A stretch of 42,607 nt of DNA from a bacterium (GTDB lineage: Bacteria > Patescibacteriota > Microgenomatia > Woykebacterales > RBG-16-39-9b), in NCBI GenBank assembly GCA_030690175.1, contig JAUYHE010000006.1, forward strand, positions 1 through 42,607. Direction: 5' to 3'. This document shows positions 18,459 to 33,274 of the stretch, one piece after another; position 1 is the stretch's first letter; each line of letters opens with the position of its first letter. The translations under genes and the position numbers were made by a program. Under the pieces are notes generated by a model that searched no databases, was not told the DNA's origin, and saw nothing but the letters and a program-made list of their open reading frames with translations.

Positions 18459-20245
18459 CTTCGGTCAAAAGATTTTGCTTCCTTTTCAAAGCGGGCCAAC
18501 AACTCTGCTAAAGACACCACCCCCTCATCGCCATTTTGCCAAGAACGAACAGCGACCTGGCGTTGCACTTTTTCCTTATCGCCAACGATTAGCATGTAGG
18601 GTATTTTTTGTAACTGGGCATCGCGGATTTTGGCTTGCATAGTTTCCGAACGATTGTCAACCTCAATATAGAAATTAGCCTTTGTTAACATTTTTTGAAT
18701 ACTTTCTGCATATTCAGCGTGTCTTTCGGCAATTGGAATGACGACAGCCTGCACTGGAGAAAGCCAAAACGGCAAAGCTCCGGCGTAGTGTTCTAAAATA
18801 ATCGCTAGAAAACGTTCAAATGATCCAAGAATCGCTCGATGAATCATAATTGGAGTCGCTCGCCGGCCCCCTTCGTCGATATAAACAGCGTTAAATCGTT
18901 TTGGCATCTGGAAATCTAGTTGAATCGTAGCAAGCTGCCAATTTCGTCCCAAACTATCATCAATATGCAGGTCAATTTTTGGGCCGTAAAACGCACCGTC
19001 CTTTGGCTTCAGAAAGTAAGCGACCTTATTATTTTTCAAAGCCTGCTCCAGACTTTTTTCCGCCTTTTCCCAGACAGATACTTCCCCTAAGGCTTTATCT
19101 GGTTTTGTTGCCAGATAAAAGGTAGGTTTAAAACCAAATGAGTTGAAAACTTCTTTCGCCATCTCGATCGCTTCACTAATTGCATCTCCTACTTGGTCTG
19201 GGGTGCAGAGAACGTGACCATCATCTTGCGAAAACTCACGGACGCGGAAAAGACCATTTAGGGTTCCCGATTCCTCATATCGATGTAAAATATCCAAATC
19301 GGAATATTTAAGCGGTAACTCATTGTGGCTGTGATGGGTGGTGTTATACAAAAGAAGAGTCTCAGGACAGTTCATCGGCTTTAAAGAGTAAGTGTGCTTA
19401 TCAGTATTAAAAACAAACATATCTTCTCGGAAAAGCTCCCAATGACCACTTGTTTCCCAAACCTCTCTTTTGGCTAAGAGCGGAGTAGATATCTCTAGAT
19501 AGCTGTACTTTTTATTAAAAGCGCGAATAAAATCTTTTAGTTTCTGTAAAAGCCGGTGACCTTTGGGGTACCAAAAAGGCATTCCTGGAGCCTGGGGAAG
19601 AAAAGTAAAAAGGCCAAGCTCACTACCAAGACGCTTATGATCTCTTTTCTTTTGCTCTTCCAGGTTGTGCAAGTACTGATCTAATTCCGGTTTTGTTTGC
19701 CAAACGACGCCGTAAATTCTGGTTAGCATCTTATTTTTCTCGGAGCCGCGCCAATAAGCCCCGGCTATAGTCAGCAACTTAAAGTGCCCAATTTTACCGC
19801 TTGAGGCTACATGCGGGCCGCGGCATAAATCTAAGAAGTCTCCTGTTCTGTAATAAGACACTTTCTTTACCTTACCTTTGGCGCTTTTTCCATCTTCAAC
19901 CCCGACATTTGTTTTGTGATCGACATCGGCGGAGCCGGTCTCCTTTATCTGCTCTAAAAGCGCTGCCTTATACAATTGACTCCTTCCCCGCTCCATCTTT
20001 ATCGCTTCGTCGATACCCATTTCACTTTTTTCGAAGGCTAGATCTTGCTTCTTTAACTCGCCCATTGCCGTTTCTATCTTTAGGAGGTCCTTTTCGCCTA
20101 TTTTGACGGGGAGATCGAAGTCGTAGTAGAAACCACTTTTCGTTACCGGACCGATACCAAATTTGGTTTTTGGCCACATTTTATATACAGCGGCGGCTAA
20201 AAGGTGGGCCGCTGAATGCCGTATTATTTCCAAAGAATCGTTCAT
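18455..20245 (-). CDS. thrS: Threonine--tRNA ligase (no N-terminal TGS domain)
   Basis: 596 aa. It starts at the editing-domain block LEIIRHSAAHLL, then RDHRKLG, class II motifs and a C-terminal anticodon-binding domain. Confidence 0.95.
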   Translation of the reverse strand: MNDSLEIIRHSAAHLLAAAVYKMWPKTKFGIGPVTKSGFYYDFDLPVKIGEKDLLKIETAMGELKKQDLAFEKSEMGIDEAIKMERGRSQLYKAALLEQIKETGSADVDHKTNVGVEDGKSAKGKVKKVSYYRTGDFLDLCRGPHVASSGKIGHFKLLTIAGAYWRGSEKNKMLTRIYGVVWQTKPELDQYLHNLEEQKKRDHKRLGSELGLFTFLPQAPGMPFWYPKGHRLLQKLKDFIRAFNKKYSYLEISTPLLAKREVWETSGHWELFREDMFVFNTDKHTYSLKPMNCPETLLLYNTTHHSHNELPLKYSDLDILHRYEESGTLNGLFRVREFSQDDGHVLCTPDQVGDAISEAIEMAKEVFNSFGFKPTFYLATKPDKALGEVSVWEKAEKSLEQALKNNKVAYFLKPKDGAFYGPKIDLHIDDSLGRNWQLATIQLDFQMPKRFNAVYIDEGGRRATPIMIHRAILGSFERFLAIILEHYAGALPFWLSPVQAVVIPIAERHAEYAESIQKMLTKANFYIEVDNRSETMQAKIRDAQLQKIPYMLIVGDKEKVQRQVAVRSWQNGDEGVVSLAELLARFEKEAKSFDRR

Positions 20246-20502
20246 TGCACGTTTTGAGATGGAATTGATTGTAAGATGTTACCGATGAAATCACCGATAA
20301 ATGGAATACTGTGAAGCTTGCTGACCAAAATTATCAAGACTGCGACTATCACTGTAGCTCCCAGTACTGTTCCCAAACCCCAAGCCAGCCCACCTAGAAA
20401 ATTATTTAAAATCACTTTCCAAGTTGAAATATGAATCCGGGTGTGTCCTCGCTGCGATCCTAGCTCGATATATTCTTTTTGCGCGTTATCGTTTTCGGCC
20501 AT
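20242..20502 (-). CDS. Small membrane protein (resembles DUF5665-type proteins)
   Basis: 86 aa counted from the ATG at 20502; the tracked N-terminal extension runs through tRNA-Val. Hydrophobic core FLGGLAWGLGTVLGATVIVAVLIIL. Its stop overlaps the thrS ATG (ATGA). Confidence 0.5.
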   Translation of the reverse strand: MAENDNAQKEYIELGSQRGHTRIHISTWKVILNNFLGGLAWGLGTVLGATVIVAVLIILVSKLHSIPFIGDFIGNILQSIPSQNVQ

Positions 20503-20514
20503 TTCAGAGTCTAC

Positions 20515-20591
20515 TGGTGGGCTGAAGAGGGCTCGAACCTCTGACCTCCGCGATGTCAACGCGACGCTCTAACCAGCTGAGCTACCAGCCC
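20515..20591 (-). tRNA. tRNA-Val (anticodon GAC)
   Basis: Manual cloverleaf: GGGCTGG/TCAGCCC acceptor, loop TTGACAT, GGTTCGAGCC T-arm, encoded CCA. It lies 4 nt after the clpP stop. Confidence 0.9.
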
Positions 20592-21265: not shown

Positions 21266-21274
21266 ATTATACCA
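21266..21274 (-). promoter_or_regulatory. Extended -10 promoter of clpP
   Basis: Minus strand: TGgTATAAT, then TCCTCCTGTT (10 nt), then ATG. There is no SD. Confidence 0.55.
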
Positions 21275-21308
21275 GATGCAGGCTAAGTTTTCTAGATTTT
21301 GAATTTCC

Positions 21309-21347
21309 AAAAGAAAAACCCCAGCCAGAGCCGCGTAACTGGGGCTG
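21309..21347 (-). terminator. Intrinsic terminator closing the GC-rich mini-locus
   Basis: Minus strand: AGCCCCAG-(14 nt)-CTGGGGTT hairpin, followed by TTTTTCTTTT. Confidence 0.65.
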
Positions 21348-21377
21348 AAATCGATCTCAAGTGACTTCCGGGTTTCT

Positions 21378-21638
21378 CTAATGAGCGACGGAGACTGGCA
21401 TCGGGCGAGATTCTGGTGGAGTGAACGGAACTCTCCCCAATCTCACCAGATCCATTTGGTGGCCAGTCAACCCTTGCAGATGGTCAAAAAGCTTGGCTTT
21501 CCGCTGCTCCAGGCGACGCCACTTCGGACTTCTGGGATGGATCTTCCCGGATTCAAGCTTCGCTTCGATAATGCCAAACTCTTCTCGATTCGCCCTGATT
21601 AGACGGTCGGTTTTGTCCAGAGAATCTGGAAATTGCAC
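21378..21638 (-). CDS. Hypothetical 86-aa protein in the GC-rich islet
   Basis: The GTG start is preceded by AGGAGG at a 7-nt spacing. The product is charged and helical-looking (LIRANREEFGIIEAKLESGK...RRLEQRKAKLFDHL). No family was recognised, and codon usage is much GC-richer than in the neighbours. Confidence 0.45.
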   Translation of the reverse strand: MQFPDSLDKTDRLIRANREEFGIIEAKLESGKIHPRSPKWRRLEQRKAKLFDHLQGLTGHQMDLVRLGRVPFTPPESRPMPVSVAH

Positions 21639-21639
21639 G

Positions 21640-21795
21640 TCAGGCCCTCCTCGAAGAAACGTCAGTGGTCATTGCCGGTGGAGTGCGGGGTGTTGTTATC
21701 CTTTCGGATGCTAGATCACCCTCAGTCGGTGGCTTGGAAGAACGATTTCGGTTTTCGCCTTGGCCTGTGAGTTCCGGGTCATCGGGATCAAGCAC
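21640..21795 (-). CDS. Possible 51-aa Pro/Thr/Asp-rich ORF
   Basis: GTG at 21795 lies 8 nt after AGGAG. The product is low-complexity, and its stop is 1 nt before the next ORF's GTG. It may be non-coding. Confidence 0.2.
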   Translation of the reverse strand: MLDPDDPELTGQGENRNRSSKPPTEGDLASERITTPRTPPAMTTDVSSRRA

Positions 21796-21851
21796 GGTTG
21801 CCGCTCCTTTCTTACTGATCATCTCTCCGACCGTGGGTATTAGATTTTTAA

Positions 21852-21923
21852 TGGGTTGTGAGGGATTCGAACCCACAACACCCTTGCACAAAACAAGACG
21901 CTCTACCATTGAGCTAACAACCC
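21852..21923 (-). tRNA. Aberrant tRNA-like gene (anticodon position reads UUG; no encoded CCA)
   Basis: GGGTTGTTAGCTCAATGGTAGAGCGTCTTGTTTTGTGCAAGGGTGTTGTGGGTTCGAATCCCTCACAACCCA folds as a cloverleaf. Position 37 is U, pair 50-64 in the T-stem is a U-U mismatch, and ATTAAA follows the acceptor instead of CCA. Confidence 0.55.
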
Positions 21924-21927
21924 AAAT

Positions 21928-22009
21928 TGGAGGTGGTAGGAATTGCACCTGCCTTGCCAGAAGGCGAAGTCCCCATAAGATAAAATCTTCTAATCAGCTT
22001 GGACCTCCA
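21928..22009 (-). other. 82-nt multi-hairpin element closed by a 7-bp stem
   Basis: TGGAGGT (21928-34) pairs with ACCTCCA (22003-09). Three local hairpins lie inside: GGTAGG/CCTGCC, CCTT/AAGG and AAGAT/ATCTT. It does not fit a tRNA (no D-arm). Confidence 0.4.
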
Positions 22010-22015
22010 GGCATC

Positions 22016-22035
22016 AAAAAACCCCCTGGCGGGGG
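22016..22035 (-). terminator. Intrinsic terminator
   Basis: Minus strand: CCCCC-GCCA-GGGGG followed by TTTTTT. Confidence 0.7.
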
Positions 22036-22149
22036 TTCTCGAAAACTTTATTTAAAAATACTTAGGTCGTTTCCCCCGCAACTATTCCCGCCTCCTTAAT
22101 AAGGAGTGCAAAGGACATATTGGTAATAAGGAAACGATATCTACCCATT
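22016..22149 (-). ncRNA. Candidate ~133-nt promoter-to-terminator transcript (leader, small RNA or leaderless 28-codon ORF)
   Basis: The predicted +1 at 22149/22148 coincides with an ATG (22148). That ORF, 22148-22062, encodes MGRYRFLITNMSFALLIKEAGIVAGETT. Internal pairing: TCGTTTCC/GGAAACGA and CTCCT/AGGAG. Confidence 0.3.
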
Positions 22150-22155
22150 GATGTT

Positions 22156-22184
22156 ATTTTAAAAATATAAGTTCCAGCTGTCAA
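22156..22184 (-). promoter_or_regulatory. Consensus promoter of the mini-locus
   Basis: Minus strand: TTGACA (22184-22179), 17 nt, TAAAAT (22161-22156). The -35 starts 4 nt after the upstream gene's stop. Confidence 0.65.
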
Positions 22185-31155: not shown

Positions 31156-31212
31156 TTTGCTTTGGTTGGATTTGAAAGTTATGATATCACAATCGAGGTA
31201 ATGAACAGAAGC

Positions 31213-31286
31213 TGGCTGCCGGGCTAGGATTCGAACCTAGATAGCGGGATCCAGAGTCCCGCGTCCTACCGTTAGACGACCCGGCA
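31213..31286 (-). tRNA. tRNA-Gln (anticodon CUG)
   Basis: 74 nt, U1-A72, loop CTCTGGA, encoded CCA. Confidence 0.9.
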
Positions 31287-31292
31287 CCGTCC

Positions 31293-31366
31293 TGGCTGGG
31301 GAACCAGGATTCGAACCTGGACTCACGGCTTCAAAGGCCGCTGTGCTACCGTTACACAATTCCCCA
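31293..31366 (-). tRNA. tRNA-Gln (anticodon UUG)
   Basis: 74 nt, U1-A72, loop CTTTGAA (A37), encoded CCA. Confidence 0.9.
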
Positions 31367-31367
31367 A

Positions 31368-31442
31368 TGGTCGGGGTGACACGATTTGAACGTGCGACCT
31401 CACGCTCCCAAAGCGCGCGCTCTACCCCTGAGCTACACCCCG
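31368..31442 (-). tRNA. tRNA-Pro (anticodon UGG)
   Basis: 75 nt, loop TTTGGGA, encoded CCA, 1-nt spacer to the next tRNA. Confidence 0.9.
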
Positions 31443-31490
31443 TTAGACTAGTGAATTATACCAAAGTGAACGTGGGATTTCTAATAGATG

Positions 31491-31576
31491 TGGTGCCGCG
31501 GAGAGGATTTGAACCTCCACAGGATTGCTCCCACTACGCTCTGAACGTAGCGCGTCTACCGTTCCGCCACCGCGGC
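31491..31576 (-). tRNA. tRNA-Leu (anticodon CAG)
   Basis: 86 nt, type II, loop TTCAGAG, encoded CCA. Confidence 0.9.
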
Positions 31577-33035: not shown

Positions 33036-33122
33036 GCGGACGTGGCGGAACTGGTAGACGCGCAGCCTTGAGGAGGCTGTGGGAGCAATCCTGTGGAGGT
33101 TCAAGTCCTCTCGTCCGCACCA
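33036..33122 (+). tRNA. tRNA-Leu (anticodon GAG)
   Basis: 87 nt, type II, loop TTGAGGA, encoded CCA. Confidence 0.9.
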
Positions 33123-33199
33123 GGACGGTTAGCTCAGTTGGCCAGAGCGCCTCGTTTACACCGAGGAGGCCGCAGGTTCAAGTCCTGCACCGTCCACCA
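33123..33199 (+). tRNA. tRNA-Val (anticodon UAC)
   Basis: 77 nt, loop TTTACAC, encoded CCA. It begins at the base right after the previous CCA. Confidence 0.9.
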
Positions 33200-33274
33200 G
33201 CCGGGATAGCTCAGTGGTAGAGCGTCCGCTTGAAGAGCGGAGCGTGGGCGGTTCGATTCCGTCTCCCGGCACCA
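33200..33274 (+). tRNA. tRNA-Phe (anticodon GAA)
   Basis: 75 nt, loop TTGAAGA, encoded CCA. It begins at the base right after the previous CCA. Confidence 0.9.

Follow-up and report, generated by a model that had tools for sequence, protein, structure and literature searches.

In a 42,607-nucleotide stretch of DNA from a bacterium of the Woykebacterales (Patescibacteriota; assembly GCA_030690175.1, contig JAUYHE010000006.1), referred to here as the window, the interval between the genes for a LiaF-like protein and ClpP contains a cassette whose parts all lie on the minus strand. These are a promoter, a leader with a short upstream open reading frame (uORF) that ends in an intrinsic terminator, two tRNA-like RNAs designated TLS1 and TLS2, two small open reading frames (ORF1 and ORF2) and a second terminator. 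The reading that we favour, while remaining evenly divided over it, is that of a vertically inherited, Woykebacteria-specific operon in which a ribosome-sensing attenuator gates the two tRNA-like RNAs and orphan small proteins; as to its role, our best guess is that translation stress induces this set of tRNA-like RNAs and small proteins. The parts are of known kinds in an undescribed combination. Bacteria of the candidate phyla radiation have tiny genomes, and very few regulatory RNAs have been described from them. A working attenuator of the proposed kind would be a rare case of leader-peptide control in this radiation and, to our knowledge, the first such control upstream of tRNA-like RNAs.

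For the comparison, contigs of relatives were retrieved via homologues of ORF1 and ORF2, and deeper Woykebacteria loci were reached with LiaF-like orthologues as anchors, giving L022, L023 and L024 (66%, 61% and 48% LiaF identity, respectively); the distribution of the cassette is that found on these fetched metagenome contigs. Nine distinct Woykebacteria lineages were used for synteny and seven for the leader (the window, L002, L018, L021, L022, L023 and L024). In all nine, at LiaF identities from 100% down to 48%, a version of the cassette was identified between the LiaF-like gene and clpP, and no empty site was seen among them. A sigma-70-type promoter, TTGACA-17-TAAAAT (22184-22156, minus strand), matches the consensus at 11 of 12 positions and begins 4 nt past the stop of the LiaF-like gene; throughout the nine lineages its -35 element TTGACA is invariant and its -10 element reads TAAAAT or TAATAT. 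At the other end, an intrinsic terminator with an 11-bp stem followed by a U-run (21309-21346, minus strand) is kept across the clade, with an insertion in the stem. The cassette also lies within a stretch of 2478 nt over which an independent Logan assembly and the window are 100% identical. Among the GTDB species representatives, a scan with the ORF2 profile found nothing, and one with the LiaF-like protein gave one irrelevant partial match.

The leader (22148-22016, minus strand) was predicted to fold with -45.7 kcal/mol, at a z score of -3.5 against shuffled controls. It contains an ATG-initiated uORF of 28 codons plus stop (22062-22148, minus strand), and every one of the seven leader lineages has retained such an ORF, with 25-28 codons. 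The ATG follows the -10 element by 7 nt in the window and by 10-14 nt in the other lineages, so that the uORF is predicted to lie on a leaderless or nearly leaderless mRNA, and the stop codon is located 0-9 nt past the motif GCGGGGG in every leader lineage. The encoded peptides are MGRYRFLITNMSFALLIKEAGIVAGETT in the window, MKTARFLITNMFLVLLIKEQEQTAGETR in L002, MKRARFLITNMFLVILIKGQEQTAGETR in L018, MKITYFHITNMFLVALFKGQERFAGETR in L021, MRNYCSLSIIKMAVSPLFGGDLAAGELV in L022, MRFYRSLINKMAGSLIFVGGTWHAGER in L023 and MTKKSSVLSLVLTKLLVVGAKRLRG in L024; although the amino-acid sequence has drifted, each lineage retains the reading frame, a start close to the 5' end and the position of the stop. In random sequence of the same composition, 27 stop-free codons are expected with a chance of about 0.18 per lineage. 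Among close relatives, the ratio of synonymous to non-synonymous changes is 19:32 in the uORF frame, compared to 6:45 and 11:42 in the other frames, and the two differences between the uORFs of L002 and L007 are both synonymous, one of them breaking a pair of the helix P1 described below. Together with the lack of third-position bias over longer distances, this pattern speaks for a uORF with a regulatory role more than for a peptide that is itself functional. That the uORF encodes a hydrophobic type I toxin was judged to be unlikely, since the peptide is poorly conserved and its hydrophobic stretch does not exceed about 12 residues; the peptides are mildly hydrophobic (grand average of hydropathy of 0-0.8).

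In the minimum-energy fold of the window's leader, the strand UCGUUUCCUU (22128-22137, minus strand; uORF codons 4-7) pairs with 22067-22076 to form P1, with codons 5-7 paired to a G-run. This G-run, GCGGGGGAAACGA (22067-22079, minus strand), is invariant and provides both the 3' strand of P1 and a candidate antiterminator strand. P1 covaries, being CGUUUCC/GGAAACG in the window, CGCUCUC/GGGAGCG in L023 and GUUCCCUC/GGGGGAAC in L022. Each locus contains the motif GCGGGGG a single time, and so does the whole window; it is invariant in all lineages even though the uORF of L024 reads the G-run in another frame, which implies that the motif is constrained as RNA. The G-run is complementary to CCCCCGC in the 5' arm of the leader terminator, a hairpin GAGAACCCCCGCCAGGGGG followed by six U residues (22016-22040, minus strand; terminator sequence GAGAACCCCCGCCAGGGGGTTTTTT), and the terminator sequence ACCCCCRCAAGGGGGTTTTT is conserved in all lineages. 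For all seven leaders, the full length is predicted to fold as P1 plus terminator, and a leader cut before the 3' arm of the terminator is predicted to fold with the G-run paired to the C-run. The predicted folds thereby combine an intrinsic terminator with a mutually exclusive antiterminator and a segment that a ribosome could occlude. Between the leader terminator and the downstream RNAs no promoter-like site was found, and transcription of TLS1, TLS2 and the two ORFs should therefore depend on read-through. The best Rfam matches of the L023 leader were Leu_leader and Phe_leader, with 18.8-21.7 bits against thresholds of 50-55, which is a hint at similarity, not membership. Taken together, these predictions suggest that the leader is probably a ribosome-dependent transcription attenuator.

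TLS1 (21928-22008, minus strand; 81 nt) is recovered by a covariance model. In relatives, it is a clean cloverleaf with the acceptor stem GGAGGG/CCCUCC, a covarying D-like hairpin (UCCU/GGGA, UCCC/GGGA, UGC/GCA and UCCCGAU/AUCGGGA), a long central arm with the motif YGGGGRC where the anticodon loop would be, and the T arm GGCAGG-UGNRAYU-CCUACC. The loop of this arm conforms to the general T-loop pattern, with U as its first and A as its fifth residue, and a C.A mismatch in the stem is conserved. The copy of the window has the acceptor GGAGGU/ACCUCC, the T arm GGCAGG-UGCAAUU-CCUACC and a central arm with a GGGGAC loop, with A3-U70 and a discriminator A; an anticodon loop and an encoded CCA are absent. 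It is the most divergent copy, with the D-like hairpin down to two pairs and a 5-nt insertion before the T arm, and folds unremarkably when taken alone (z of -0.5, against -2.9 for the L002 copy). The model R1, built from four relatives only and with the window left out, finds it at full length with 29.9 bits (E of about 4e-6). L023 and L022 score 43 and 40 bits, respectively; R1 identified no second copy in the 42.6-kb window and nothing convincing in L024. In the model alignment, 92% of the pair cells hold standard pairs compared to 47-63% in slid controls, and three pairs show compensatory changes, one of which is the U-A of the window at acceptor pair 6. Across lineages whose LiaF-like proteins are 48-66% identical, the acceptor stem and the T arm hardly vary, which points to a specific partner. 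TLS1, which is absent from Rfam, is an undescribed RNA family with a conserved tRNA-like cloverleaf. A weak antisense promoter-like site, TTGCCA-16-TAAGAT (9 of 12 positions; 21954-21981, plus strand), lies inside TLS1, and its -35 element arises from the window-specific insertion before the T arm.

TLS2 (21852-21923, minus strand) scores 57.2 bits on the tRNA family RF00005 and is called tRNA-Gln(UUG) by ARAGORN. Of the properties of a decoding tRNA-Gln it has the cloverleaf, whereas the CCA, the U1-A72/G73 identity, a purine at position 37 and a conserved anticodon were all missing. The anticodon loop is UUUUGUG (anticodon UUG, U37), the acceptor has G1-C72 and A73, and the T stem contains a U.U mismatch. 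TLS2 is followed by TTAAAAAT in place of an encoded CCA, which is present in the other 16 of the 17 tRNA genes of the window, and the genome's two canonical tRNA-Gln genes have U1-A72 and G73 (tRNA-Gln(UUG) being located at 31293-31366). The window as a whole is tRNA-dense, its 17 genes within 42.6 kb including clusters at 31213-31576 and 33036-33274. At the position of TLS2, the L002 group has a cloverleaf with the anticodon GAA and L021 one with GAU, L018 has a 105-nt long-arm cloverleaf that ends in GCCA and is uncalled by ARAGORN, L022 and L023 have acceptor/T-arm minihelices of 43-46 nt, and L024 has a single 73-nt tRNA-like RNA with ACCA (32.5 bits on RF00005). The anticodon loop is absent from the L018, L022 and L023 counterparts, and across this position conservation is confined to the acceptor/T-arm half. 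This comparison indicates that TLS2 is not an ordinary decoding tRNA. Scanners call it tRNA-Gln, tRNA-Phe or tRNA-Ile in different genomes, and such calls should be kept out of tRNA repertoires and of inferences on codon capacity.

The 43-nt minihelix of L022 (L022:5165-5207) has G1-C72, G2-C71, G3.U70, A73 and an encoded CCA, which is the full alanine identity set, as in transfer-messenger RNA (tmRNA) and tRNA-Ala minihelices. The set is not conserved in the other lineages, and the alanine identity pair is absent from the window, where TLS1 has A3-U70 and TLS2 has G3-C70. A tmRNA or permuted tmRNA was rejected for the segment: ARAGORN called none, and the Rfam model of the permuted form, RF04321, gave 13.9 bits, overlapping TLS2, against a gathering score of 47. 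The 105-nt RNA of L018 (Woykebacteria RBG_16_44_10; L018:2400-2932) has a 6-bp D stem and is uncalled by Rfam as well; this locus contains an extra orphan ORF of 131 amino acids (2537-2932), the stop of which overlaps the start of ORF1.

ORF1 (21640-21795, minus strand; GTG at 21795, stop at 21640) codes for 51 amino acids and is preceded by the Shine-Dalgarno sequence AAAGGAG 7 nt upstream. Its family comprises nine proteins, all from the same set of contigs; ORF1 is acidic (isoelectric point 4.8-5.4), proline-rich and probably disordered. The start (GTG, TTG or ATG) and the AAAGGAG are conserved, synonymous changes are enriched in the reading frame, and the relatives, of 61-64 amino acids, end in LEG-x-ERE-x-NR-x-RWGM-x-D. 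ORF2 (21378-21638, minus strand; GTG at 21638, stop at 21378) codes for 86 amino acids behind a GAGGAGG. Seven close homologues were found, one of them from Candidatus Woykebacteria, and no more than three clusters at 50% identity were obtained when 1.84 billion representative proteins were searched exhaustively with a profile. Differences between ORF2 and its L010 counterpart are distributed 23/18/43 over the codon positions, the other two frames being without bias, and in some relatives a 12-nt in-frame deletion was identified. Neither ORF was matched in Pfam, PHROGs, PADLOC or NCBIfam, nor ORF2 in a sequence search of the PDB. The ORF region was rejected as one large structured non-coding RNA (ncRNA), with fold z scores of -0.5 and +0.5 on the two strands and a clear codon periodicity. 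The substitution patterns thus argue for real orphan genes under purifying selection, and the relatives of both were found only in Woykebacteria metagenome-assembled genomes. This agrees with one of two proposals made earlier for the segment from the DNA letters alone (the sequence-only reading), namely that of a small accessory module. ORF2 is basic (isoelectric point 10.2) and was modelled by AlphaFold2 as a helical hairpin (mean confidence score, pLDDT, of 82) with helices at residues 7-29 and 38-68 and the conserved loop SGKIHPRSPKWRR. Its top structural neighbour was the tRNA-binding arm of seryl-tRNA synthetase at a non-significant E of 0.6; the likeness of the model is suggestive and is not evidence.

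In the deeper lineages, the cargo behind the tRNA-like RNAs differs: L023 has an ORF of 74 amino acids, L022 a possible basic peptide of 25 and L024 a zinc-ribbon protein of 87 together with others. None of these products was detectably similar to ORF2, and the positional counterparts in L023 and L024 were rejected as its homologues (hhalign probability below 1%). The conserved core of the locus therefore comprises the promoter, the putative attenuator with its uORF and the tRNA-like RNAs, whereas the proteins are replaceable. The L024 protein (L024:5178-5441) carries a zinc-ribbon-like motif, CPKCPSC...HCPYDDC, with a weak sub-threshold match to PknG_rubred, and is followed by two more small ORFs.

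In the scheme that we infer from these parts, transcription would begin at the conserved promoter, nearly on the ATG of the 28-codon uORF. With no ribosome on the leader, or with a ribosome that has run to the uORF stop, GCGGGGG would be sequestered by P1 or by the ribosome, and the hairpin at 22040-22016 would terminate transcription. A ribosome that stalls early in the uORF would instead cover the 5' strand of P1, so that the G-run could pair with CCCCCGC and read-through would yield a single transcript with TLS1, TLS2, ORF1 and ORF2; translation stress would be the physiological signal. RNase P, RNase Z and the CCA-adding enzyme need no more of a tRNA than its acceptor/T-arm half, and since this half is the conserved one, both tRNA-shaped RNAs would probably be excised from the read-through transcript as stable RNAs, which would also free the ORF1-ORF2 mRNA. 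Once excised, these RNAs might work as stable mimics of tRNA; alternatively, their main role might be to punctuate processing, as tRNAs do in mixed operons of the tyrT-rttR-tpr type. For the basic helical hairpin of ORF2, nucleic-acid binding is the most plausible role, possibly as a partner of the TLS RNAs. A further step, which we regard as a long shot, would be that TLS1, TLS2 and ORF2 form a stress-induced tRNA-mimic ribonucleoprotein, restricted to Woykebacteria and switched on by ribosome stalling on the uORF. If so, its targets would be ribosomes, enzymes of tRNA processing or factors that target tRNA, and it would work, for example, as a decoy, rescue factor or sponge, and the cargo proteins of the other lineages would be alternative partners on the same RNA platform.

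Several observations weigh against this operon with its attenuator. The uORF contains neither tandem regulatory codons nor a defined arrest motif, only a loose I-x-(N/K)-M being shared, and it has no Shine-Dalgarno sequence, so that its start would have to be used on a (nearly) leaderless mRNA. Substitutions between the uORF of the window and those of relatives are without third-position bias (6/10/9). The antiterminator strands are invariant and hence cannot show covariation. The start of transcription, its termination and the read-through are all predictions. We know of no attenuator that controls tRNA-like RNAs. TLS1 of the window is the weakest member of its family (29.9 bits versus 40-106). 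In ORF1, a 52-nt deletion near 21667, reproduced in the independent Logan assembly, removes the most conserved C-terminal motif and shifts the frame, the frame-shifted ORF1 ending 1 nt before the start of ORF2. With its weak TLS1, the degenerate D-like hairpin and the loss of the ORF1 motif, the module of this genome looks partly eroded. The matches of ORF2 in a Foldseek search of the PDB were generic hairpins at E of at least 0.6. Finally, the downstream proteins are not conserved in the deeper lineages, and a conserved function may lie in the RNAs alone.

One alternative explanation is that the parts are unrelated neighbours without a functional unit, namely a stand-alone small-protein gene or small RNA with its own terminator as the leader, decaying duplicate tRNAs and ordinary orphan genes. 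The strong terminator directly after the uORF, the mild hydrophobicity of the uORF peptides, the free variation of TLS2 and the eroded look of TLS1 and ORF1 in this genome speak for such a chance assembly. It is difficult to reconcile, however, with the order, orientation and spacing of the parts, which are kept (TLS1 begins 2-10 nt after the terminator, and 4-6 nt separate it from TLS2) while the LiaF-like proteins are only 48-66% identical. It would also have to account for a TLS1 acceptor and T arm that are near-invariant, unlike those of decaying pseudogenes, for downstream parts that have no promoter, and for the complementarity of G-run and C-run in all lineages. We therefore consider unrelated neighbours to be rather unlikely, though the best placed of the alternatives to a single operon.

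The base composition bears on a second alternative. Between 21378 and 21795 the G+C content is 54.1% compared to 42.6% in the whole window, in line with the G+C excess noticed from the sequence alone; 0.3% of 420-nt windows reach this value, all the others lying in the tRNA cluster near 31200. Past the leader terminator the interval has 47-53% G+C in all lineages, against 40-43% in the rest of the contig, an excess over the flanks of about 8-10 points in every lineage. Since this offset is common to all of them, the anomaly is an old, shared property of the locus and does not reflect a recent arrival; it is due partly to amino-acid composition and partly to a modestly raised G+C at third codon positions (0.46-0.55 versus 0.34-0.43). 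In ORF1, the first and second codon positions have G+C fractions of 0.60 and 0.62, respectively. The raised third-position value could also be taken to indicate an ancient integration hotspot, where different small elements would once have integrated at the tRNA-like genes, leaving the GC-rich cargo as their decayed remnants. In line with this, the GC-rich cargo starts right at the 3' end of the tRNA-like genes, its content differs between deeper lineages, and in the window a direct repeat of 11/12 nt, ATTAAAAATCTA and ATTCAAAATCTA (minus strand; 21293-21304 and 21841-21852), brackets ORF1 and ORF2, with its copies directly after TLS2 and directly after the operon terminator. The repeat is A/T-rich, however, and was not reproduced in any other lineage (shuffle p of 0.15-1.0); it was rejected as an att-like repeat and is probably due to chance in A/T-rich sequence. 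An integrase or recombinase was not found in the interval, the cargo is just 0.3-0.9 kb in size, purifying selection acts on ORF1 and ORF2 throughout the clade, and the site is occupied in all lineages examined. A hotspot of this kind seems improbable to us.

For the same reasons, the other proposal of the sequence-only reading, a scar of an integrated or phage-derived element, is not supported as a recent event: all relatives have the segment at the same site, and integrase, att repeats and empty sites in relatives, as marks of a mobile element or prophage remnant, were not found. A phage or plasmid origin was likewise rejected, as a BLAST search of phage genomes gave only generic tRNA similarity, and four scans of viral contigs (protein and DNA-pattern scans), PHROGs and a BFVD fold search were empty. 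With no integrase, no reproducible flanking repeats, no viral relatives and a shared site, the segment looks inherited and not like a recent insertion scar. The sequence-only reading had named as its own counter-case a segment carried by all relatives at one position, with the composition of its flanks and with ORFs devoid of coding signal; the common position is indeed observed, whereas the composition is unlike the flanks and the ORFs carry a coding signal.

The weakest alternative, a uORF-controlled pair resembling a toxin-antitoxin system, in which ORF1 would be an acidic disordered antitoxin, ORF2 a basic toxin and the tRNA-like RNAs passengers or RNA antitoxins, is suggested by two small, translationally coupled genes of which the acidic precedes the basic one, by a narrow, patchy distribution with replaceable cargo that is typical of such systems, and, in one report, by a toxin-antitoxin operon controlled through uORF-sensed translation stress (PMC12121999), and is nevertheless very unlikely, since Pfam, PADLOC and NCBIfam gave no match to a toxin or antitoxin family, ORF2 is a plain helical hairpin without an enzyme-like fold, and the putative antitoxin has lost its C-terminus next to an intact 'toxin', a loss that a cell with a classical type II pair would not be expected to survive.

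The inherited operon thus remains the reading that we prefer. With respect to its layout, every part that had been listed from the sequence alone was found again on the minus strand at the same position; the multi-hairpin element given there as 82 nt is present at 22008-21928 and measures 81 nt. The statement that no part belongs to a recognisable family does not apply to TLS2, given its RF00005 and ARAGORN calls, and holds for the rest, since TLS1, the leader and the ORF region stayed below the Rfam thresholds (best non-tRNA matches of at most 19 bits, E of at least 0.4). The uORF in the leader, the cloverleaf nature of TLS1, the missing CCA of TLS2 and the 52-nt deletion in ORF1 had escaped the sequence-only reading.

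Downstream of the cassette, clpP is preceded by a promoter of its own, TAGAAA-17-TATAAT, in which the -10 element is extended by TG (21266-21294 of the window) and of which CTGRTATAAT is kept in all relatives; this conservation indicates that clpP is independent of read-through from the cassette. The gap between clpP and the gene for a DUF5665 protein contains only a tRNA-Val gene in the window and in other relatives, whereas L022 (L022:6128-7512) has a gene with a GIY-YIG domain, an oppositely oriented ORF of 87 amino acids and a gene for peptide deformylase there. The DUF5665 ORF of the window is listed with a TTG start and 105 amino acids (20242-20559) and overlaps the tRNA-Val(GAC) gene (20515-20591) by 45 nt; as the gene is called at 76-105 amino acids in relatives, its true start is probably located downstream of the tRNA. 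In a Woykebacteria contig from RBG_19FT_COMBO_43_10 (L001:6262-9150), the region in which clpP, DUF5665 and thrS would be expected contains 496 N and is devoid of called genes. A LiaF-like protein (P0013) that is 71% identical to the one of the window is labelled 'Candidatus Nanoarchaeia archaeon' at NCBI, and probably derives from a mis-binned or mislabelled genome.

Among known RNAs, TLS2 is like a canonical tRNA-Gln(UUG) in its cloverleaf with canonical D and T loops, and differs from it by the lack of CCA, by U37, by G1-C72/A73 and by an anticodon that is not conserved in relatives. TLS1 and the minihelix forms of TLS2 resemble the tRNA-like domain of tmRNA and minihelices, in that the acceptor is stacked on the T arm and no anticodon is present; unlike in tmRNA, an mRNA-like domain, pseudoknots and a tag ORF are absent from the cassette. 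Mixed tRNA-mRNA units are known with thrU-tyrU-glyT-thrT-tufB and secG-leuU. In such units and in the cassette alike, excision of the tRNA by RNase P and 3' nucleases would set the ends of the mRNA. In the E. coli tyrT transcript, a tRNA, the ncRNA rttR and the small protein Tpr are combined (PMC3141248). The cassette is similar to units of the tyrT-rttR-tpr type in that tRNA-shaped RNAs and a small-protein mRNA share one transcript; it differs in that its RNAs are not normal decoding tRNAs and in that the whole unit is placed behind a putative attenuator.

For the leader, the closest systems are the trp, leu and pheA leaders and the uORFs that act as stalling sensors. According to the respective reports, such sensors control hflXr, msrD, yxjB and the TopAI-YjhQ toxin-antitoxin pair (PMC6310831, PMC10314930, PMC6851288, PMC12121999). 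Shared with the cassette are a short ORF at the 5' end, the stop of which lies beside a strand with a choice between pairing in P1 and pairing with the terminator, and the drift of the peptide while the ORF and the pairings are kept. In contrast to leader attenuators, tandem regulatory codons and a Shine-Dalgarno sequence are absent from the cassette, and where those leaders precede biosynthetic or known resistance genes, the products encoded downstream here are tRNA-like RNAs and orphan mini-proteins.

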